From assembly GCF_003334315.1 (NCBI RefSeq), contig NZ_QOWR01000072.1: 18,167 nt of DNA. One strand, written 5' to 3'. A program made the position numbers and the translations under genes. Within the stretch, counting starts at the first letter, position 1; every line of letters begins with the position of its first letter. The notes under the pieces are model-generated. The model was not told the origin of the DNA. It did not search any database and was given only the letters and a program-made list of their open reading frames with translations. The stretch comes from Escherichia coli. GTDB lineage: Bacteria > Pseudomonadota > Gammaproteobacteria > Enterobacterales > Enterobacteriaceae. Shown here one piece after another: positions 9,301-18,155 of this stretch.

Positions 9301-10043
9301 TTGGGTGTAAATAGCTGGGTGGCGGCAGGGATGTCTTCACTCTTGACCACCTTACCCATTACCTGATCTTTCTTTTCAGAGATGTAGAATTGGTAAAGCC
9401 AACCAATCACTTCTACCTGTTGCCAGTCCTCTTCAGGGATGCCGTCTACCAATCCACGCAGAATTGAGTCGGTACGCGTTAGGTTGTCTGGTAGAAGAAG
9501 CTCAGTTTCATCGTCCAATGCGTCAAATAAGAAAGGCATCGCCTCATGAAGCTTATGGCACTGGCCTAACAGCAGTTCACGATACAGCTCTTCGTCTTTG
9601 TTGCCCGCAAGCTTGAGTTCAACAATGCGAGCTCTATCTAATCCGAGTTCATCCGCAGCGTCTTGGGCATGGTCGATAATTTCAAAGCCTTTAGGGTTGT
9701 CTGGGTGCGACAAAACACGAAAACCGTGGCCTAGATAGTCATGGATTTCCATATAGCGAATAGCACACAGACGGTTGAACCAGGTATAAGCTACTTGTTC
9801 AATAAGTTGTGCATACCCAAGTTTCTGGCTTCTGGCTACTATGCGTTTTCTGGGCTCGGCCAGTTTACCGTCAAAACTGTTACCGGCGATTTGAAGCACA
9901 GAACCTTGTAGATTCGCTTCTGCAATTTGTAGCTCGCCCTTTTTATTCGCGGTGATACCAAAGGTATTTAATCGTTTAGCTACCGCATCCATAAATTCGC
10001 GGCGCGCTTTTGGTGCGTATTTTTTCATGTTGTTCGTATTCAT
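6390..10043 (-). CDS. pglX: PglX, BREX N6-adenine DNA methyltransferase
   Basis: 1217 aa. AdoMet-binding motif I LDPACGSG at 9096-9119 and catalytic motif IV NPPY at 8505-8516, both verified by reverse-complement translation. Size and position match BREX PglX. Confidence 0.9.
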   Translation of the reverse strand: MNTNNMKKYAPKARREFMDAVAKRLNTFGITANKKGELQIAEANLQGSVLQIAGNSFDGKLAEPRKRIVARSQKLGYAQLIEQVAYTWFNRLCAIRYMEIHDYLGHGFRVLSHPDNPKGFEIIDHAQDAADELGLDRARIVELKLAGNKDEELYRELLLGQCHKLHEAMPFLFDALDDETELLLPDNLTRTDSILRGLVDGIPEEDWQQVEVIGWLYQFYISEKKDQVMGKVVKSEDIPAATQLFTPNWIVKYLVQNSVGRQWLQTYPDSAIKTQMEYYIEPAEQSDEVNQQLKAITPESIEPETIKVLDPACGSGHILIEAYNVLKAIYEERGFRSRDIPKMILENNLYGLDIDDRAAQLSGFALMMMARDDDKRIFTRNVRLNVLSLQESNHLDLPTLWKALNLSGSWQSGTSQGLFSDDDQDLSSFNADNRYQLLKRTLARFTQAKTFGSLIDVPSDDHEQLKEILSTLVELQESGDSMQKPAAKQLIEFVHQALVLSIRYDAVIANPPYMGSKYQTAEVKMFLKDNFKGYEKDLFSAYIVRNLQLAKEHGQLGFMTPFVWMFISSYEQLRSTLIDDEIISTLIQLEYSGFDGATVPICTFTLTKGHIPEYIGSYIRLSDFKGAANQAPKTLQAIKNPECGWFYKAKSDDFKKIPGSPIAYWASSLQFSMFDSHPLLTSIANVAEGTTTGDVNRFLKMWHEIDVNGLGIGFDSRERAKDSGKKWFPYNKGGEYRKWFGNNDYVVNWAEDGKELRQYQGSFLRGEKFYFKAGLTWSKVSSGILSFRLFDEGFLFDTGGLCAFSDNIEYIAAILNSKVSLDIMSILAPTLNFTVGTVSSLPIVEGIPRLTENANRLKRLSKSDWDSYETSWDFTKHPLLSHTSLLIKDSYSRLLLENSQSLKEYREIEEYNNKVIAEAYGITSDALTIADHEITLFSSFGYRYGPDRAVNGEFLYRSDVVAELISYSIGAMLGRYSIDSKGVVYAHTANEGFEQLVAEGAYKTFPADEDGIIPLTDQEWFKDDATNRFREFVQVVWGDDHLQENLDFVAESLCLNAIKPKKSESALETIRRYLSTQFYKDHLKTYKKRPIYWLFSSGKQKAFECLVYLHRYNEGTLSRMRTEYVTPLLGKYDAYAEQLEKQIETADSTSEANRFKKELDALIKKQVELREFDDKLKHYADMRISLDLDDGVKVNYGKFGDLLADVKAITGSAPEVN

Positions 10044-10058
10044 ATGATCTTGCGCCTC

Positions 10059-11822
10059 TTATTCTGTCTCTACGCTGCTTGCGGGTTGTAATGCAGTTCT
10101 AATGCGGGCAAGCAGTGTTTCCTGACGCTCGCGGTAAAAGTCCATAAACTGGTTTAGTTGTTCAGGTAATGATGTTATGGCTTGCGATTGCAGATGTGCT
10201 TGTCTTGCATTCACATCAGGCCACTGCTGCGCATACCATTCATGGGGCATTTTTTGCCGCTTCTGGTTGTTGATTGTCCCTTCCAACAGTTGAAGGTTTG
10301 GCAGCTTATTAGATGCCTCGATGAGTTCATCTAGCTGTTCAGCTGGGACACCAACTTTTGCAAGCTTGTTACGCGTAAACAAACCTTTGGGGTAAATGTG
10401 GTCCACATGAAAGTGTCGTGAAAAATCGAATCCTGGGAACAACAAAGTCAACAAGGCAAAGGTACGCGGATTACCATAATCCAACTGCGCTAGTTCACTA
10501 ATTTCCTCTGGGTCAAAGCGCAACGATTTACCACGCTGTTGCATGGTCGCTTCAATTTTCGCTAGCGGGAAACCCGTATCACCCGATTGTTTAATGTCTG
10601 AGCGAAGCATAGTAAGCAGGGTATCCAAACCACTTCCCCAGATGCCTGACGCTTTCAACAACGACCTAATGAGCCAGTTTCTGATGCATTCTCTATCGAC
10701 CGCATATTCAACCCTAGAAAGGTAGCTTGCCGTTAACTTTCGGTGGTGCAGGTAATAGGCTAACGGGAGGATGGCACTTGTTGCTCTGAGGTTTTGTGCA
10801 TTAAAACCAAAACTTGCCAGCAACTGCATTGAGAGCAATAACGCATCACGAATTGGCGTCCAGTTCTTTTCGAGAATCGCCATGTTTTCCTTGTTAAAGT
10901 TCTCAACCTTAAAGCCCACGCTACCGATGTCAGAGAGCATTAAGCCTGCTTTTAAAACGAGATCTTTTGATACGTTGAATCCATCACCAACACGGTTCAT
11001 CTCATCCACTAATGCATAAATTTCTTCACGGGCATCTAACGAGCTCCACTGCGCTACTGCTATTGAAAGTAGTAAGTCTGAGTAGGACAAAGTAGTGCCG
11101 CCGCTATTCATGCGGATAAAGATATTCAGAACACGTTCAAGGCTCTGATCACTTTCTTCGTAAAACGAAATCTTGTCTTTGTCATGGATGGTCCGATACA
11201 AGTGACGAAGAGTTGAGCGAGCCTCTTTGCGTTGCTCCGAGCTCAACCTAGCATCATCAGCAACTTCATCGATAAGTGCATCTTCTTCCTCTTCCATGAT
11301 CCGGCCTACACGGAACCAGTATTGTTCAGATGCATCCAAAGAGGCTTTATCGTCGGTTAGGAACTCAAAGTCATACATCGACCCAGTTTCCAAGTCGGGC
11401 TGGCTTAACAGATTCAAGTGAAGCCTGCGCACTGGGAAGGCGTCATCATTGCTCCACCATTTACCTGTCAGCTTCCACGCAAATGAGCCGCGTAGGCCGA
11501 TGTTCAAAGCGGTAATCCGCTGCTGTCCATCTAGGACGGCAATGAACTCACGCTCTGGTAACTGAGTGACATTTTCACAATGGTAGTTATCTCGCTCATG
11601 GTAATGCTGCATGAACTGATAAAACTGATAGCTATGCCGGTTCTCTGGTTTTATCTTCCAGAATAGAAAGGTCCCAAACGGGTAACCTTGCAACAGGCTA
11701 TCAAATAGACGACAGATCTGTTCTGGTCGCCATACAAACTCTCGCTGGATGGCCGGTAACAGGTATTCCTGCTCAGCAACCTTGTCGAGTAATGATCTTA
11801 TTGTTCCACCCGCTTGATACAT
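10059..11822 (-). CDS. GmrSD-family (DUF262 + DUF1524) putative modification-dependent type IV restriction endonuclease, BrxU/SspE-like, embedded in the BREX operon
   Basis: 587 aa. N-terminal DUF262/ParB-like motifs LLPAIQREFVW and DGQQR (11517-11531); C-terminal His-Me-finger/HNH-like DUF1524 motif HVDHI (10395-10409), followed by NLQLLEGTINNQK. Sits 16 bp after brxC and 15 bp before pglX, each with a purine-rich SD. Confidence 0.85.
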   Translation of the reverse strand: MYQAGGTIRSLLDKVAEQEYLLPAIQREFVWRPEQICRLFDSLLQGYPFGTFLFWKIKPENRHSYQFYQFMQHYHERDNYHCENVTQLPEREFIAVLDGQQRITALNIGLRGSFAWKLTGKWWSNDDAFPVRRLHLNLLSQPDLETGSMYDFEFLTDDKASLDASEQYWFRVGRIMEEEEDALIDEVADDARLSSEQRKEARSTLRHLYRTIHDKDKISFYEESDQSLERVLNIFIRMNSGGTTLSYSDLLLSIAVAQWSSLDAREEIYALVDEMNRVGDGFNVSKDLVLKAGLMLSDIGSVGFKVENFNKENMAILEKNWTPIRDALLLSMQLLASFGFNAQNLRATSAILPLAYYLHHRKLTASYLSRVEYAVDRECIRNWLIRSLLKASGIWGSGLDTLLTMLRSDIKQSGDTGFPLAKIEATMQQRGKSLRFDPEEISELAQLDYGNPRTFALLTLLFPGFDFSRHFHVDHIYPKGLFTRNKLAKVGVPAEQLDELIEASNKLPNLQLLEGTINNQKRQKMPHEWYAQQWPDVNARQAHLQSQAITSLPEQLNQFMDFYRERQETLLARIRTALQPASSVETE

Positions 11823-11838
11823 AGCTATCCGTTGCCTC

Positions 11839-14800
11839 TTACTTAATTCTTACTCGGTCGCCAGCTTTGACCGCAGCAATCAGCTGCTCTCTTAAAGCGG
11901 CAAGATAGGCATCAACTTCGGCTTCACTTTCAATGAATCCGGTTGTTACTGACTTAGCCATGGCATCGGTTGAGTTAATCGTTACGGTACGTTTTGCAAC
12001 CGGCTGTGGCTGCACTGGTTCAGAGGCTGGCTCAGGTGCTAGAGCTGCTTTACCGGCTTTCGCTGCTTCCTCTTCGCGTGTCTGCTGTTCGAGTTCACGA
12101 CGTCTTCGCTCAGCTTCAGCTTTTTTGCGTTGATCTTCGATAAAGCCATTCAGCAACTCATAGGCTTCGTCCTCGTAACCTTCCGCTTCAGTTTGCTCAC
12201 TGATAATTTGTGGTATTGAAGAGGTCGCTTCAATACGCTGTCTGCACATTTGTAACGGGCGCAGTGCTTGGTTCTGTAATTCAGACGGTGCATAAGCTTC
12301 AGCTAGCGCTTCTTTTACACGTCCGATGCGCAGATCAACACGCTCTAAGGCATGAGTGCGTTTTTCTTCAACCAATGTTGAGTTAACTTTTGCCACCTGC
12401 TCGATAAGCGGATTAATGTGGCGCAGCTGCTCATACGGCGAGGGCATATTGTAAATGCGTTCTAATTCAGTGAGCGCTTTTAATGCTTCACTGTCTTTTT
12501 CTAACGCAGGTCTATTGGCCTTAAATTTCTCGTTCAATGCGCCAGCAAGGGCTTGCCAAGTTTGAAATTGGCTATTGTAGAAGTCATCAAGATCCTCAAA
12601 ATCCTCAGCAAACTCTTCAAGGGCATCAGCGTCTTCTAAGAATCGGGTGATAAGGGCGAAGCTTGAAGTTTGCTCAAGAATACCCGCGACCAATGCAAGA
12701 CCCTCGTCAATTTGAGATTTACCTGGGAAATGGCCTGTCTGTGACTTGGTTCTGAATGATTTAAGCTTTTCATTCCAAGCCAGTAATTCATCGCGCACTA
12801 ATTCGTAGAGCTCCTTTTCACCAGAGCCGGTAAAGGTTTTTGAAAAGATCTCTTTAACAAGACCAGCAGCCTTTTTGATTTGGCGCTCGTCATGTTGCCT
12901 GATTTTATGTACACGGATCTCGCCGCGTTTACGCACGCTGGTAAACGGCTCGTAAGCTTTTTTCAACGCCAGATCTGTGCCTTGGGTACTAAAAGATAAC
13001 TTTCCAGCCAAGCCCAGCCTTGCAGTGAGCAATAAGATTTCATTGTCTGGCCAGCCATACGGGCGCTTGCCGAAGTGGGCAACGATGTCACGTAAGTAAA
13101 CAGGCTCATTACGCTCGACTTTTAGCGTTACGTACTGCTCAACCTCACGCGTAGCTTCTGGGTTACATTCATCCGCTTGAAGATCCAGTCCAATCTGAGC
13201 AATATCATCAGCAACAAGAACGGCCTGTAGCTCACGCAAAACTTCACCAGGCGTTGCCTTGAGCATGTTCAATTTAGCGAAGGTATTTTCGATAACGTAT
13301 TTGTATGCTTCTTCGACGATGGCACTTGGCGTTGCTGATTTATTCGGCAGTTTTGTGCCGATCGCGTAAACGTCAGCCTCGGCAAACAAAGCTTCAAAAT
13401 CCGTTCTTAAGCGTTTTTCACGCTCCATATTTTCCATCTGCTTTTCGCGGAGAAGGTGTTCTTGCTCTGGTCGCTGTCCTGAATTTTGTTTTAAGAATCG
13501 GTCAGTTTTTATAAAGGTTGTCAGCTCATCCCAAAGACGCTTATGTTCGCCCAGCTTGACGAGCACGCACCCATCAGCCTCAAGCGTATGATTGAGGCAC
13601 GCTTGATCGTGGGAGTAATTTTCAAAGTGCGAATCCAAAGGTGAAATGACTTTAATGACTAGGTCTTCCAGCGTGGTGCCATCTTTTGGATGACCATTGC
13701 AAAAACGGCTCACCGCAAAGTCTTGCTTATTAATCGGGTATCGATAGGCACGATTACCTTTCAAAATACCGTCAAATACGATGGCTGAAAGCTTGTTCGA
13801 GACCTCTGACATTTCAACGTCAGTGTGACGGATCTCGTTTTCGATCTCTTTTTCTTCGTTGGTCAGGAAGATAAACTCATCACCATTACGCGCAATCAGC
13901 AATTGGCGTTCAAGACGATTCAAGCTCTCTTCAATTTGTTTACGCAGCGCAATTTTATCTGCATCGATTCGATCAATTGACAGCGTCACAAGGTTGTCTA
14001 GTGTGCTTTTGACAACGTCCACATAACGGATCAAGAAAAGCGTTTTTAGGATCTTGCCATCAAAATCCGTTAAGGAATCCAACTCACAGGCTTGGTCAAT
14101 CGTTCGCTTAACCGCTGGCTCCAAAAAGCTTTCAATCGGTGCGTAGAAACTGTAAAACGGGATTAACACATCAAGGCCAGAGTCCTTCATCTGTTTTGCA
14201 GCTGATTGGAAAGCATCAAGTAATGAACGCTCCCCCATGGCTAAGTGCTTACCCGTCGCGCCTTTTGTTCGAATTGACTCAAACACTTTTTGAACCAGCG
14301 TGTAATGGTAAGGCACAAACGGATAGTTGTCCACGAAAGACGGAGCGTCGGTGTAGCCCTTTAGAGACGCGGTTGTCGTTTTATCAAATGTCAGCTGGTT
14401 ACGAAGAATGTCGCCCTTTTCAGCAAAGACATCGATGAGGTATGTACGAGCTTCTTCCGTTTTGGACAACAATCGCTTTTGAATAACTTCCGAGGTATTC
14501 GAGCTCGACAGCTGTAAGCGGGTACTAAAACGCCCTTGAATTTTAGAGAAGTCCTCGCCATCGCGCTTATCCATACCACCAATGGCAGCATCAATGTCTG
14601 CCTGAGAGGTAACAACGACCCAAGCTCTGCCACCACAATATGTGCCAAGATCTTCAGTAATGGTCTGAAGCTTCAACATCATTTGTGTGTTCTTACCGAT
14701 AAACTGACCGACTTCATCGACTAAGAAAAGAAGGTTACGATCCCCAGTGCGATCTAAGTATTCATTAACCCACTTACAGAAGTTTCGGATATCTAGCGGG

Positions 14801-15516
14801 AAATTGTTTTCAACCTGCTCAACCCACGCTTTGGCAGACTCTAATGATTGCTCACTGGCATGAGCGAGTGCTTCTGAAAGTTCGTCTCGATAGAAGTCAT
14901 AGGCGTCACGCTCCTTTTCCCAAGTTGATTGAGTCAACTCAGCAAATTTGTCCTTGAAAGATGCGTATTGATTACGTTTATCAAGCTCGCGTTCTAAGTG
15001 CGCAATATGAGGAAAGTCAGCGCAGTATCCTACACGCTCATTAAAGACTTTGAGGAAAACCTTAAGAATGGCATTTTCTCGGTCGTCCGTATTGGCTCGC
15101 GAATCGATGTTAAAAAGAATAACATCAGTGTCTTTGGTAACCGCTTTTTGGATGTCCGCCAACAGCATGGCGTCGTTGATTTTGTCTTTGAAAAACTCAA
15201 ACGCTTGTCGGCCTTGGCCATCTTTTTCAACAGATTTATTCTCAAGCAAATAAGATAAAATTTTCAGGAAGTGCGATTTACCCGAGCCAAAGAAGCCAGA
15301 AATCCACACACCAATTTTACCTGACATATCACCGTGGCTTTGCGTCACAGATGGGACGTAAGCCTCAAAAAATGCACGAAAGTGTCTATCTAACTCTCGG
15401 GTAACAACATACTCATCAAGCTCGACATACACACTGTCATTGTCTTTTTGTTCCGCTTTAACAACGCCATTAATGTCACGCGTCAACTTCTTGGAAAAAA
15501 TCTGTTCAATTTTCAT
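11839..15516 (-). CDS. brxC: BrxC (PglY-like) large P-loop ATPase of BREX
   Basis: 1225 aa. Walker A GFFGSGKS at 15274-15297 (verified); Walker B-like LLFLVDEVGQ. Size and position are typical of BrxC. Confidence 0.9.
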   Translation of the reverse strand: MKIEQIFSKKLTRDINGVVKAEQKDNDSVYVELDEYVVTRELDRHFRAFFEAYVPSVTQSHGDMSGKIGVWISGFFGSGKSHFLKILSYLLENKSVEKDGQGRQAFEFFKDKINDAMLLADIQKAVTKDTDVILFNIDSRANTDDRENAILKVFLKVFNERVGYCADFPHIAHLERELDKRNQYASFKDKFAELTQSTWEKERDAYDFYRDELSEALAHASEQSLESAKAWVEQVENNFPLDIRNFCKWVNEYLDRTGDRNLLFLVDEVGQFIGKNTQMMLKLQTITEDLGTYCGGRAWVVVTSQADIDAAIGGMDKRDGEDFSKIQGRFSTRLQLSSSNTSEVIQKRLLSKTEEARTYLIDVFAEKGDILRNQLTFDKTTTASLKGYTDAPSFVDNYPFVPYHYTLVQKVFESIRTKGATGKHLAMGERSLLDAFQSAAKQMKDSGLDVLIPFYSFYAPIESFLEPAVKRTIDQACELDSLTDFDGKILKTLFLIRYVDVVKSTLDNLVTLSIDRIDADKIALRKQIEESLNRLERQLLIARNGDEFIFLTNEEKEIENEIRHTDVEMSEVSNKLSAIVFDGILKGNRAYRYPINKQDFAVSRFCNGHPKDGTTLEDLVIKVISPLDSHFENYSHDQACLNHTLEADGCVLVKLGEHKRLWDELTTFIKTDRFLKQNSGQRPEQEHLLREKQMENMEREKRLRTDFEALFAEADVYAIGTKLPNKSATPSAIVEEAYKYVIENTFAKLNMLKATPGEVLRELQAVLVADDIAQIGLDLQADECNPEATREVEQYVTLKVERNEPVYLRDIVAHFGKRPYGWPDNEILLLTARLGLAGKLSFSTQGTDLALKKAYEPFTSVRKRGEIRVHKIRQHDERQIKKAAGLVKEIFSKTFTGSGEKELYELVRDELLAWNEKLKSFRTKSQTGHFPGKSQIDEGLALVAGILEQTSSFALITRFLEDADALEEFAEDFEDLDDFYNSQFQTWQALAGALNEKFKANRPALEKDSEALKALTELERIYNMPSPYEQLRHINPLIEQVAKVNSTLVEEKRTHALERVDLRIGRVKEALAEAYAPSELQNQALRPLQMCRQRIEATSSIPQIISEQTEAEGYEDEAYELLNGFIEDQRKKAEAERRRRELEQQTREEEAAKAGKAALAPEPASEPVQPQPVAKRTVTINSTDAMAKSVTTGFIESEAEVDAYLAALREQLIAAVKAGDRVRIK

Positions 15517-15534
15517 TCGGGAGGCTCCCTGCTC

Positions 15535-16128
15535 TTAAATTTTTTTACCGTCTTCAGGCACAAGTTTGAAGGCGCGATAGTAGTTTTTAGATTCGATCAT
15601 GCCAAAAGGATGCAAATCCCTTCCGCTATATTCACCCGGATAGAAAAGCACTAATGGCGTGCTACCCATCACGTCTTGCAGAGCACTAAGTAACTCATGT
15701 CCTCGGACAAGAGGCCACGCACTGCCTAAGCCTGACAGCAACACAAACTCAAGTTCTGATGGCTTATATTTGTCCGCGATATACCTTGCCACTTTCTCTT
15801 GGCTCAGAGGCCCGGCTAGTGTTTTTCGAAGACCATCAACACCGACTTGCAATTCACGCTGGCAAGCTCGGTCGAAAAGGCCTCGCTCCTCAAGCATATC
15901 TATCAAGACTTCAAAAATATTGAGATGGACAAAGCGGTAACCACGCTTGTTGAGTTTTTCGTCAACGTGCTTAAGGTGCTCTCGTACAAGCAGTTCATAC
16001 TTGGCTGGATAGTCAAATACCCAAAATCCAATTTCATTGCCCAAGCCATCGTTTTTCAAAAACTTAGGGCTTTCAATTCGTTCCTGTATAAGATCAAGCC
16101 TGGTCTGGAGAGCCTTCATATTGTGCAC
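15535..16128 (-). CDS. brxB: BrxB (DUF1788-type) BREX protein
   Basis: 197 aa, second small protein of the operon. The start overlaps the brxA 3' end by 13 bp. Assignment rests on size and conserved gene order, not on a remembered motif. Confidence 0.8.
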   Translation of the reverse strand: MHNMKALQTRLDLIQERIESPKFLKNDGLGNEIGFWVFDYPAKYELLVREHLKHVDEKLNKRGYRFVHLNIFEVLIDMLEERGLFDRACQRELQVGVDGLRKTLAGPLSQEKVARYIADKYKPSELEFVLLSGLGSAWPLVRGHELLSALQDVMGSTPLVLFYPGEYSGRDLHPFGMIESKNYYRAFKLVPEDGKKI

Positions 16129-16715
16129 TCCATGACCTCAATCAAATCTTCCCGGCCCAGACGAACTAACCAGTCTTTAACTTCTGGCATTAGGTAAACA
16201 GGTTGTATTTTCTTTGTCCTGCTATCACTCAGGTAGCCACTATCAACCAATGCCTTAATTGCGTTGTTACCCATTTTTTTGACAGTTGAGTCAGAAAAAC
16301 CGCCAAGTTCGGCATATGCCCGCACTCTCGAGTCATAAAACTCAGACCATGCATCAGCGGTTAAAGCGGGTTTATAGGTGCGACGAGCCTCGGCTAAGGT
16401 ATGTCGCATAAAATCAGCGACAACCGGAGAATGAATGAGTAATGACATCATCAGCATTTGGACATAGGCACGTTCACTCGCGGCTAAAAGATCAGTCATA
16501 AACTCATCACCCAGGCCTTCAATACGCCAACGGATTGTTCTGGCATAACGAATAGCCGTCTGACCGGATTTTTTCTGAAGAACATTTTGCTCAACGATCA
16601 GCGACTTCCACTCATCTTCTGGAAGTTTTTTCAGTAGCGATTCTGCGATTATTCTAGATTCAGTTATCAATAAACTGCTTCCGATAAGATCGCCTAAATA
16701 TTCTTTTATATTCAT
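16116..16715 (-). CDS. brxA: BrxA (DUF1819-type) BREX protein
   Basis: 199 aa, first core gene, 9 bp downstream of the regulator gene. Assignment rests on size and gene order. Confidence 0.8.
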   Translation of the reverse strand: MNIKEYLGDLIGSSLLITESRIIAESLLKKLPEDEWKSLIVEQNVLQKKSGQTAIRYARTIRWRIEGLGDEFMTDLLAASERAYVQMLMMSLLIHSPVVADFMRHTLAEARRTYKPALTADAWSEFYDSRVRAYAELGGFSDSTVKKMGNNAIKALVDSGYLSDSRTKKIQPVYLMPEVKDWLVRLGREDLIEVMECTI

Positions 16716-16724
16716 AAATTCATC

Positions 16725-17651
16725 TCACGATTCGCTATATCCAGGAGCGAGTGCAGCATTGTCAACGCCGTATAGTGCTTCTGGATTTTTAAGTGCTAAA
16801 TGGAACTCTCGCCCATTGCTCTTGCTATTCTTTGAACAATCGATATTCCATAAACGCAGTAAATATCCAGCGAACGCAGCTCTTATCTCTACACGCAACC
16901 TATTGTTTTCCATTGCGTAGTCTATCAATACAGCTTCTGGATGTGCTAGTTTTGGATGAGGTATCAGCTCTAGTTCAACGATTCGGTTCCATTGCTTATC
17001 CCACTGAAGAGTCTCAACTTCGTCGTTAACCTCATCTTCTAACAACTCAACTTCACTTATTCTGGTTAACACAAAATCCCTAAATTCTCTATGCTTTCTA
17101 TCGAATGCTCGGACATGCCATCTCAAGCCATTGTCAATCAAGGTATGAGGAACTATTTGCCTGCTCCCATGACCACTCGACAATGAGGTGTACTCAATAT
17201 TAATCACCGCGCGTTTATGTATGGCTTCACTAATCGCCGCTACCACTTCCAATTTCGGCTTATTGAGATGAAATGGTGCTTCACAAGCCATAGGTGGCCT
17301 AACCTTGCCAAGAAAGCCATCACCGAACCCTTGGCTTATCGTCGCAAGCGTTCGAACAATGTCATAATCAAACAACGGCTGGAATGTGCTCGTCTTCAAG
17401 TGCACTCTGCGCTTTTCGTCATACATAACGTTGTTAGGAGCCAACGCTTTGTACCGCGCAAAATCTTGTGTTGCCACAGACGGCGCTACGCTAAAGCGCT
17501 CGGTTAAATAACTCCGCCCAGCTTCACCTTTAAATAACAAAGTGAAATCAATATGAGCGAGTCGTTCTCTCTGTGCTTGGCTAAGCTCTTCAAGTCCAGT
17601 GTTGTCTTGCACTGTCAACCTCTCAATCCATTTGGGACAAGCCCTAATCAT
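16725..17651 (-). CDS. brxR: WYL-domain transcriptional regulator (BrxR/CapW-like) with N-terminal winged HTH
   Basis: 308 aa. N-terminal HTH-like segment (RSYLTERFSVAPSVATQDFARYK) and a central WYL-like signature (RQIVPHTLIDNGLRWHVRAFDRKHREFRDFVLTRI; WHV in place of WYL). Immediately upstream of brxA on the same strand, as BrxR is in described BREX loci. Confidence 0.72.
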   Translation of the reverse strand: MIRACPKWIERLTVQDNTGLEELSQAQRERLAHIDFTLLFKGEAGRSYLTERFSVAPSVATQDFARYKALAPNNVMYDEKRRVHLKTSTFQPLFDYDIVRTLATISQGFGDGFLGKVRPPMACEAPFHLNKPKLEVVAAISEAIHKRAVINIEYTSLSSGHGSRQIVPHTLIDNGLRWHVRAFDRKHREFRDFVLTRISEVELLEDEVNDEVETLQWDKQWNRIVELELIPHPKLAHPEAVLIDYAMENNRLRVEIRAAFAGYLLRLWNIDCSKNSKSNGREFHLALKNPEALYGVDNAALAPGYSES

Positions 17652-17691
17652 CTAAAACTAGGAAGCCATCGATTGAATTCCATCAAGCAAT

Positions 17692-17708
17692 CTACTGTTT
17701 TTCAGTAG
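17692..17708. promoter_or_regulatory. Perfect inverted repeat CTACTG-N5-CAGTAG upstream of brxR; candidate operator
   Basis: CTACTGTTTTTCAGTAG on the plus strand, centred about 49 bp upstream of the brxR start codon. No T-tract follows on either strand, so it is not a typical intrinsic terminator. Confidence 0.35.
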
Positions 17709-18155
17709 GTTTCATAGTATCAACAAGTCGTCTTGTTGGCTATAAAAATTGGCTTGATATTGTTCGAATGTTTCTTTTCTGGCCTTGCTAGAAGCTCACG
17801 CTAGAATGCCAACTGACGTAATTCATTCTCTCGAACACGTCTAGCAACTTCTGCCTGGGCTGATCACATTTAGCGAAAGCGTGATTGATTAACCTAACAC
17901 CATGAGCATTAAAAGGTCATAATGGAAACGATTTTTCTGTTTTAGGCTGATGTTCCTCTGTTACATTCTGGGCAGGAATATACCAAATCCCTTCATGGCA
18001 CTTCGGGCAACATTTTTGATTGTTTGTAAAATACTCACGACACTGCACGCAAAACCAATTCGTGACCTTTAATATTGGTGAAACTGATCGTGATCTTACC
18101 CAGCAATAGTGGACACGCGGCTAAGTGAGTAAACTCTCAGTCAGAGGTGACTCAC

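Follow-up and report, generated by a model that had tools for sequence, protein, structure and literature searches.

The regulator BrxR of the BREX/BrxU island on plasmid pEFER (NC_011743) of Escherichia fergusonii ATCC 35469 is the closest known counterpart of the protein considered here. Its first binding site, R-BOX1, is an imperfect inverted repeat with arms of 11 bp and a spacer of 5 bp; it occupies pEFER 12,820-12,846, between the predicted -10 of PbrxR and the brxR gene, the start of which was placed at pEFER 12,921 (Picton et al. 2022, NAR 50:5191; PMC9122601). In EMSA experiments, BrxR bound the wild-type site with a Kd of 13.0 nM, which rose to 24.0 nM when IR1 was replaced by poly-C and to 85.5 nM when IR2 was replaced, and specific binding was lost when both repeats were converted to poly-C. 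The BrxR R17A mutant did not bind. BrxR specifically repressed a lacZ fusion of the promoter fragment R7, and in vivo a single repeat was enough to repress; the construct in question, IR1c-IR2, kept IR2 and not IR1. Knockouts of brxR are reported to have been unobtainable owing to toxicity. R-BOX2, a proposed second BrxR site, was described at pEFER 13,612-13,638 (PMC9122601).

Two further WYL regulators are known from structures. BrxR_Acin belongs to the type I BREX system of Acinetobacter sp. NEB394 (Luyten et al. 2022, NAR 50:5171; PMC9122589; PDB 7T8K/7T8L) and is 22% identical to the E. fergusonii protein. In the BrxR_Acin-DNA co-crystal, base contacts are made at positions +/-6 and +/-7, and over the A:T-rich centre the minor groove is narrowed (PMC9122589). 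CapW of Stenotrophomonas maltophilia (PDB 7TB5/7TB6), a CBASS regulator of the same family, represses, like BrxR, a defence operon by way of a promoter-region site, but the defence system and the operator sequence are different.

The brxR leader in an E. coli chromosome

The DNA studied here is a stretch of 18,167 bp from Escherichia coli, referred to as the window. It represents the BREX/BrxU island of pEFER in a chromosomal copy from E. coli, with an identity of ~99%. Over 90% of the whole window pEFER is 99.3% identical, and the part from 16700 to 17862 corresponds to pEFER 13833-12671 with 99.1% identity; the leader aligns without gaps, and coordinates are converted as window x = pEFER 30533 - x. 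The region is 100% identical to four E. coli chromosomes and ~99% identical to many enterobacterial plasmids. brxR occupies the 5' end of the defence operon and is followed on the same strand by brxA, brxB, brxC, brxU, pglX, pglZ and brxL. The type I BREX core of six genes is complete, with brxA, brxB, brxC, pglX and pglZ as well as brxL matching PADLOC profiles over about their full length, and all BREX ORFs of the window are intact. A DUF262 gene of 587 aa (10059-11822, - strand) lies between brxC and pglX, agrees in position and length with the DUF262 gene of pEFER, and has the candidate family HEC-05 as its best PADLOC match. In pEFER, a gene inserted at this place has been published as BrxU, a GmrSD-type type IV restriction enzyme. 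The window differs from pEFER in being chromosomal and in carrying, upstream of brxR, the remnant of a zinc-ribbon gene and an IS3 element instead of brxS and an intact brxT, which are both absent from the chromosomal version. In place of the pEFER DNA upstream of 12,671, which contributes to the active R7 fragment, the window has other sequence, and therefore the strength of the promoter could differ.

From the sequence alone, an earlier note on this DNA had singled out a palindrome in the brxR leader, CTACTG-TTTTT-CAGTAG on the + strand, and had proposed it as an operator of BrxR. The perfect 6-5-6 palindrome is present exactly as described (Table 1). Alignment to pEFER identifies it, very probably, as the middle 17 bp of R-BOX1, an autoregulatory operator, 27 bp long, that belongs to the BREX/BrxU island. 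The inverted repeat extends imperfectly beyond the palindrome to an 11-5-11 arrangement in which 9/11 positions are complementary; the palindrome proposed earlier is real, but the site, as defined by R-BOX1 of pEFER, comprises 27 bp and not 17. The window agrees with the pEFER operator at 26/27 bases, the sole difference being a G->A substitution in IR2. The flanks, including TGATACTAT, the -10 box, the distance of 74 nt from R-BOX1 to the GTG codon at 17612 (pEFER 12,846 to 12,921, window 17687 to 17612), R-BOX2 and the gene order including brxU are the same in both, and by descent the two are one locus. One further base change is found at 17677, 10 bp downstream of R-BOX1. The template of the published EMSA probe, GACGACTTGTTGATACTATGAAACCTACTGAAAAACAGTAGGTTGCTTGATGGCATTCAATCGATGGCTT, which is printed in Supplementary Table S1 of Picton et al. 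(2022), matches window 17732..17663 at 68/70 positions. For this sister sequence, experiments essentially equivalent to the binding and reporter assays that had been suggested for the palindrome are already in print (PMC9122601). The operator is one that was already known, the published R-BOX1, present here with one substitution in a chromosomal copy of the island; a reader who had only the sequence picked what is very probably a true operator.

Table 1. Features of the brxR region and of the downstream operon, and R-BOX1 variants of related loci
Feature	Position in window	Strand	Remarks
R-BOX1 operator	17687..17713	-	IR1 GAAACCTACTG (17713..17703), spacer AAAAA (17702..17698), IR2 CAGTAGATTGC (17697..17687); corresponds to pEFER 12,820-12,846 by alignment and published EMSA/lacZ
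Perfect 6-5-6 palindrome	17692..17708	-	R-BOX1 positions -8..+8, inner arms of the longer repeat
Single-base difference from the validated site	17691	-	IR2 position 7 (+9 from the dyad): A in window, G in pEFER
Putative extended -10 of PbrxR, TG-A-TACTAT	17714..17722	-	adjoins IR1; invariant in all E. coli relatives
Putative -35, TAGCCA (4/6)	17737..17742	-	17 bp upstream of the -10; invariant in the alignment
Second perfect palindrome, CAACAAG-ACGA-CTTGTTG	17721..17738	.	fills the -35/-10 spacer; outside R-BOX1
brxR, wHTH-WYL-WCX repressor	16725..17612	-	295 aa; GTG start; 294/295 to PDB 7QFZ
R-BOX2, ACTACGCAATG-GAAAA-CAATAGGTTGC	16895..16921	-	inside the 3' part of brxR; identical to pEFER 13,612-13,638
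Regulated operon brxA, brxB, brxC, brxU (DUF262), pglX, pglZ, brxL	1641..16715	-	PADLOC profiles; gene order as in pEFER
R-BOX1 of pEFER, AR_0061			IR1 GAAACCTACTG, spacer AAAAA, IR2 CAGTAGGTTGC
R-BOX1 of ZF34			IR1 GAAACCTAATG, spacer AAAAA, IR2 CAGTAGGTTGC
R-BOX1 of cq9, L017, L021			IR1 GAGACCTAATG, spacer AAAAA, IR2 AAGTAGGTTGC
R-BOX1 of pIS04_68			IR1 GATACCTAATG, spacer AAAAA, IR2 AAGTAGGTTGC
R-BOX1 of p30EVA2			IR1 GAGACCTGATG, spacer AAAAA, IR2 AAGTAGGTTGC
R-BOX1 of Ec1120			IR1 GAGACCTAATG, spacer AAAAA, IR2 AGGTAGGTTGC
R-BOX1 of Moellerella			IR1 GAGACCTAATA, spacer AAAAA, IR2 AAGTAGGTTAC

The protein that would bind the site is encoded next to it. BrxR of the window is identical at 294 of 295 residues to the crystallised BrxR_Efer (PDB 7QFZ), with which it aligns over the full length, and contains R17. 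It also matches the structures of CapW (E = 1.2e-33 to 7TB5) and, weakly, BrxR_Acin (E = 1.4e-23), both significantly, and the WYL profiles of PADLOC are found at residues 113-281. The architecture is that of the BrxR family, with an N-terminal winged helix-turn-helix (wHTH), a central WYL and a C-terminal WCX domain; the homodimeric state is taken from the literature. Residues 1-70, which form the wHTH and include R17, are identical across the compared E. coli and E. fergusonii loci, and the Moellerella proteins have a few N-terminal differences and retain R17. As in the window, BrxR_Acin is a homodimeric wHTH-WYL-WCX repressor of a pseudo-palindrome whose half-sites are separated by 5 bp with an A:T-rich centre, and its site overlaps with the promoter of the BREX operon that it controls. 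It differs in that the half-site sequence is unrelated, the site overlaps the -35 box (-51 to -27) and not the start site, and its recognition residues (SRQQ) are not common to BrxR of the window.

Promoter, start codon and expected action of BrxR

The region had been described earlier as lacking a convincing sigma70 promoter by eye. In agreement with this view, a consensus scan called no site on the gene strand at a threshold of 9 of 12 matches; against it stands a weak putative promoter with 8/12 matches, chosen by eye and by homology and lying below the threshold of the scan, which has an extended -10 TG and abuts the operator. Its -10 hexamer ends one base before IR1. A -10 just upstream of IR1 was likewise predicted by BPROM for pEFER (PMC9122601). 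Moellerella retains both the -35 hexamer and the TG, and one of its loci (W1) has TACCAT at the -10. With these putative hexamers, transcription would be expected to start inside IR1, that is, under R-BOX1.

The palindrome had been placed 41-57 bp upstream of the brxR start codon, which is arithmetically correct for the longest brxR ORF (16725..17651, - strand) with its ATG at 17651. The start is likely to be the GTG at 17612 instead. A Shine-Dalgarno sequence, GAGAGG, lies 6 nt upstream of this GTG and nothing comparable precedes the ATG; the 7QFZ chain starts at the same codon, which is residue 14 of the long ORF; and in Moellerella an in-frame TAG lies between ATG and GTG. In RefSeq, brxR is annotated with 295 aa in AR_0061, ZF34 and Moellerella and with 308 aa in some other genomes. 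The longer ORF from the ATG is probably not used.

The published model of regulation can be transferred to the chromosomal E. coli copy of the island. On this reading, the subunits of a BrxR homodimer would each set a winged helix-turn-helix on one of the 11-bp half-sites, with the A5 spacer between them. Bound over the expected transcription start, BrxR would block RNA polymerase, presumably by steric occlusion, and thereby keep the expression of brxR and of the downstream BREX genes low. For R-BOX2, the weaker site inside brxR, a damping effect on the internal promoter PbrxA has been proposed. A signal or ligand acting through the WYL domain may then release BrxR from the DNA. The one-base variant of the window would still be bound by BrxR. 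The window has preserved the operator with its flanks and spacing, as well as R-BOX2 and the repressor. Searches of the window with the half-sites and with ACCTA-N11-TAGGT yielded only R-BOX1 and R-BOX2 above background. IR2 of R-BOX2 (CAATAGGTTGC) differs from IR2 of R-BOX1 at one base, which is not the position changed in the window.

Operator variants and recurring bases

A search for the same half-sites in other BREX loci with similar BrxR proteins had been suggested earlier. The outer blocks of the operator recur down to ~60% identity of the regulator; the perfect inner 6-5-6 palindrome is specific to one lineage. In an alignment of the leaders of ten loci and two metagenome contigs, the perfect inner palindrome was found only in the window and in the group of pEFER and AR_0061 (see Table 1 for the variants). 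The relatives retain ACCT(A) at -10..-6 and GTAGGTT at +5..+11, together with the A5 spacer. ACCTA-N11-TAGGT with an A-rich spacer is common to seven operator variants, which come from E. coli, Moellerella and metagenomes. The bases that are likely to matter are the ACCTA/TAGGT blocks at about +/-6 to +/-10 together with the A5 spacer, and not the inner bases of the palindrome. Such a pattern is in line with the BrxR_Acin-DNA co-crystal (PMC9122589), the contact geometry of which we infer to be carried over to BrxR_Efer. No co-variation between operator and recognition helix was found, as the wHTH is constant among the E. coli and E. fergusonii loci though their inner operator bases differ.

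Beyond these loci, ACCTA-N11-TAGGT is also present upstream of BrxR homologues of Proteus with 60% identity, perfect in one locus (L006, 903-923) and with ACTTA in plasmid pR997. In Proteus the motif lies ~200 bp upstream of the regulator ORF (318-338 and 514-2076 in the locus of Proteus mirabilis pR997, L012). The regulator of pR997 precedes a type I restriction-modification operon and not a BREX operon; in this plasmid a different defence system appears to have taken over the pair of operator and regulator. Upstream of the BrxR homologues of Klebsiella, Enterobacter and Vibrio, with 43-48% identity, the motif was not found and other inverted repeats are present; the motif therefore holds only down to ~60% identity. 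A flank-anchored pattern had no match in 100,044 species-representative genomes. In metagenomes it had two true matches, which contained no new operator variant, and six chance matches, which were discarded on inspection.

The IR2 substitution, the spacer palindrome and the surroundings of the operator

The substitution in IR2 concerns a position that is G in every relative examined, namely pEFER, AR_0061, ZF34, p30EVA2, pIS04_68, cq9, Ec1120, two Moellerella loci, two metagenome contigs and two Proteus loci. Among 5,426 complete E. coli genomes the leader was found in 55 records, 28 of which equal pEFER over 49 bp while four equal the window. The version with A was seen in these 4/55 records and in 0/63 PLSDB plasmids, and all four carriers are chromosomal with an adjacent IS3. 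IR2 is the half-site that is bound more tightly in pEFER, so the substitution may lower the affinity. In a scenario built on this, the operator of the window has decayed: G->A weakens the binding of BrxR, the island is partly derepressed, and control is exerted mainly through IR1 and R-BOX2. In its favour are the uniform G among all relatives compared, the restriction of the variant to four chromosomal E. coli records with IS3 nearby, the greater contribution of IR2 to binding (PMC9122601), and the fact that the changed base adjoins positions with base-specific contacts in BrxR_Acin (PMC9122589). Arguing against this possibility is the finding that even the complete replacement of IR2 leaves a Kd of 85.5 nM and that repression in vivo needs only one repeat (PMC9122601). 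Moreover, natural sites tolerate one mismatch in a half-site, as in the ACTTA of pR997 and in IR2 of R-BOX2, and with BREX ORFs that are intact and a knockout that is toxic, a strong loss of repression would probably not have lasted in four isolates of different origin. A weakened operator is on balance unlikely, and the effect of G->A on binding is expected to be modest at most.

A smaller chance still is given to two proposals that ascribe a function of their own to the details of this leader: that G->A retunes the expression of BREX adaptively, in a lineage that lacks brxS and an intact brxT and carries IS3, or that the second palindrome, which occupies the promoter spacer, is the operator of another regulator or a structural element of PbrxR. 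The spacer palindrome is maintained in the Moellerella plasmids as CAATAAG-ACGA-CTTATTG, in which both arms are changed and the pairing is kept, and it has one broken pair in ZF34 and one in a TARA contig. The published EMSA probe holds only half of it, so BrxR does not need the spacer palindrome. Neither an effect of G->A nor a role of the spacer palindrome would alter the understanding of BREX regulation.

It is very improbable that the palindrome acts, instead of or besides the binding of protein, as a 5'-terminal hairpin of the brxR mRNA which influences stability or translation. A stem of 6 bp with an A5 loop is indeed part of the predicted minimum-energy fold of the leader, and the 27-mer folds better than 200/200 shuffled sequences. 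The leader as a whole, in contrast, is not unusually structured (z = -1.25; 18/200 shuffles fold as well), and binding of BrxR to double-stranded DNA was directly shown (PMC9122601). The relatives break the pairs next to the loop (CTAATG/AAGTAG) but keep the outer ACCTA/TAGGT and their exact spacing, which fits two half-sites for a protein and speaks against a hairpin. A known RNA family or leader structure was rejected on the basis of the z value and of a comparison with Rfam, which gave no match at E <= 1.

R-BOX1 as the operator of BrxR derives its meaning from homology and not from the frequency of such patterns. In the whole window, five perfect 6-5-6 palindromes were observed and 4.85 +/- 2.07 were expected from 300 first-order shuffles; the 265-bp leader contains three scored 6-N(0-10)-6 matches from two palindromes, a count that was reached in 9% of the shuffles. 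The bare 6-5-6 pattern is not beyond chance, and statistics of the sequence alone cannot show its importance; it is because of the homology to the pEFER site that the palindrome acquires significance. That it arose by chance and is functionless in the strain of the window has next to no probability, since despite this chance-like frequency it matches an experimentally validated operator base for base, at equal distances from the promoter and the start codon and adjacent to a repressor of 99.7% identity.

The homology to pEFER stops at 17862. Of the pEFER upstream ORF (12496-12813, 105 aa), which is presumably the published brxT, ~47 3' codons are left in the window at 17720-17862, with an in-frame stop (LAF*RELL). 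Further upstream, at 17917-18167, is a small zinc-ribbon ORF (CxxC...CxxC) that comprises 141 aa in E. coli ZF34 and is apparently shortened to 43-52 aa in the window by the IS3 element, which starts at ~18088 and has the ATG of its transposase at 18157. A piece of 78 bp from the leader region (17783-17860) occurs in ~45 Klebsiella pneumoniae plasmids as copies of 93.6% identity, separate from the rest of the island and inside an annotated "hypothetical protein"; it may be the remnant of a shared mobile-element junction.
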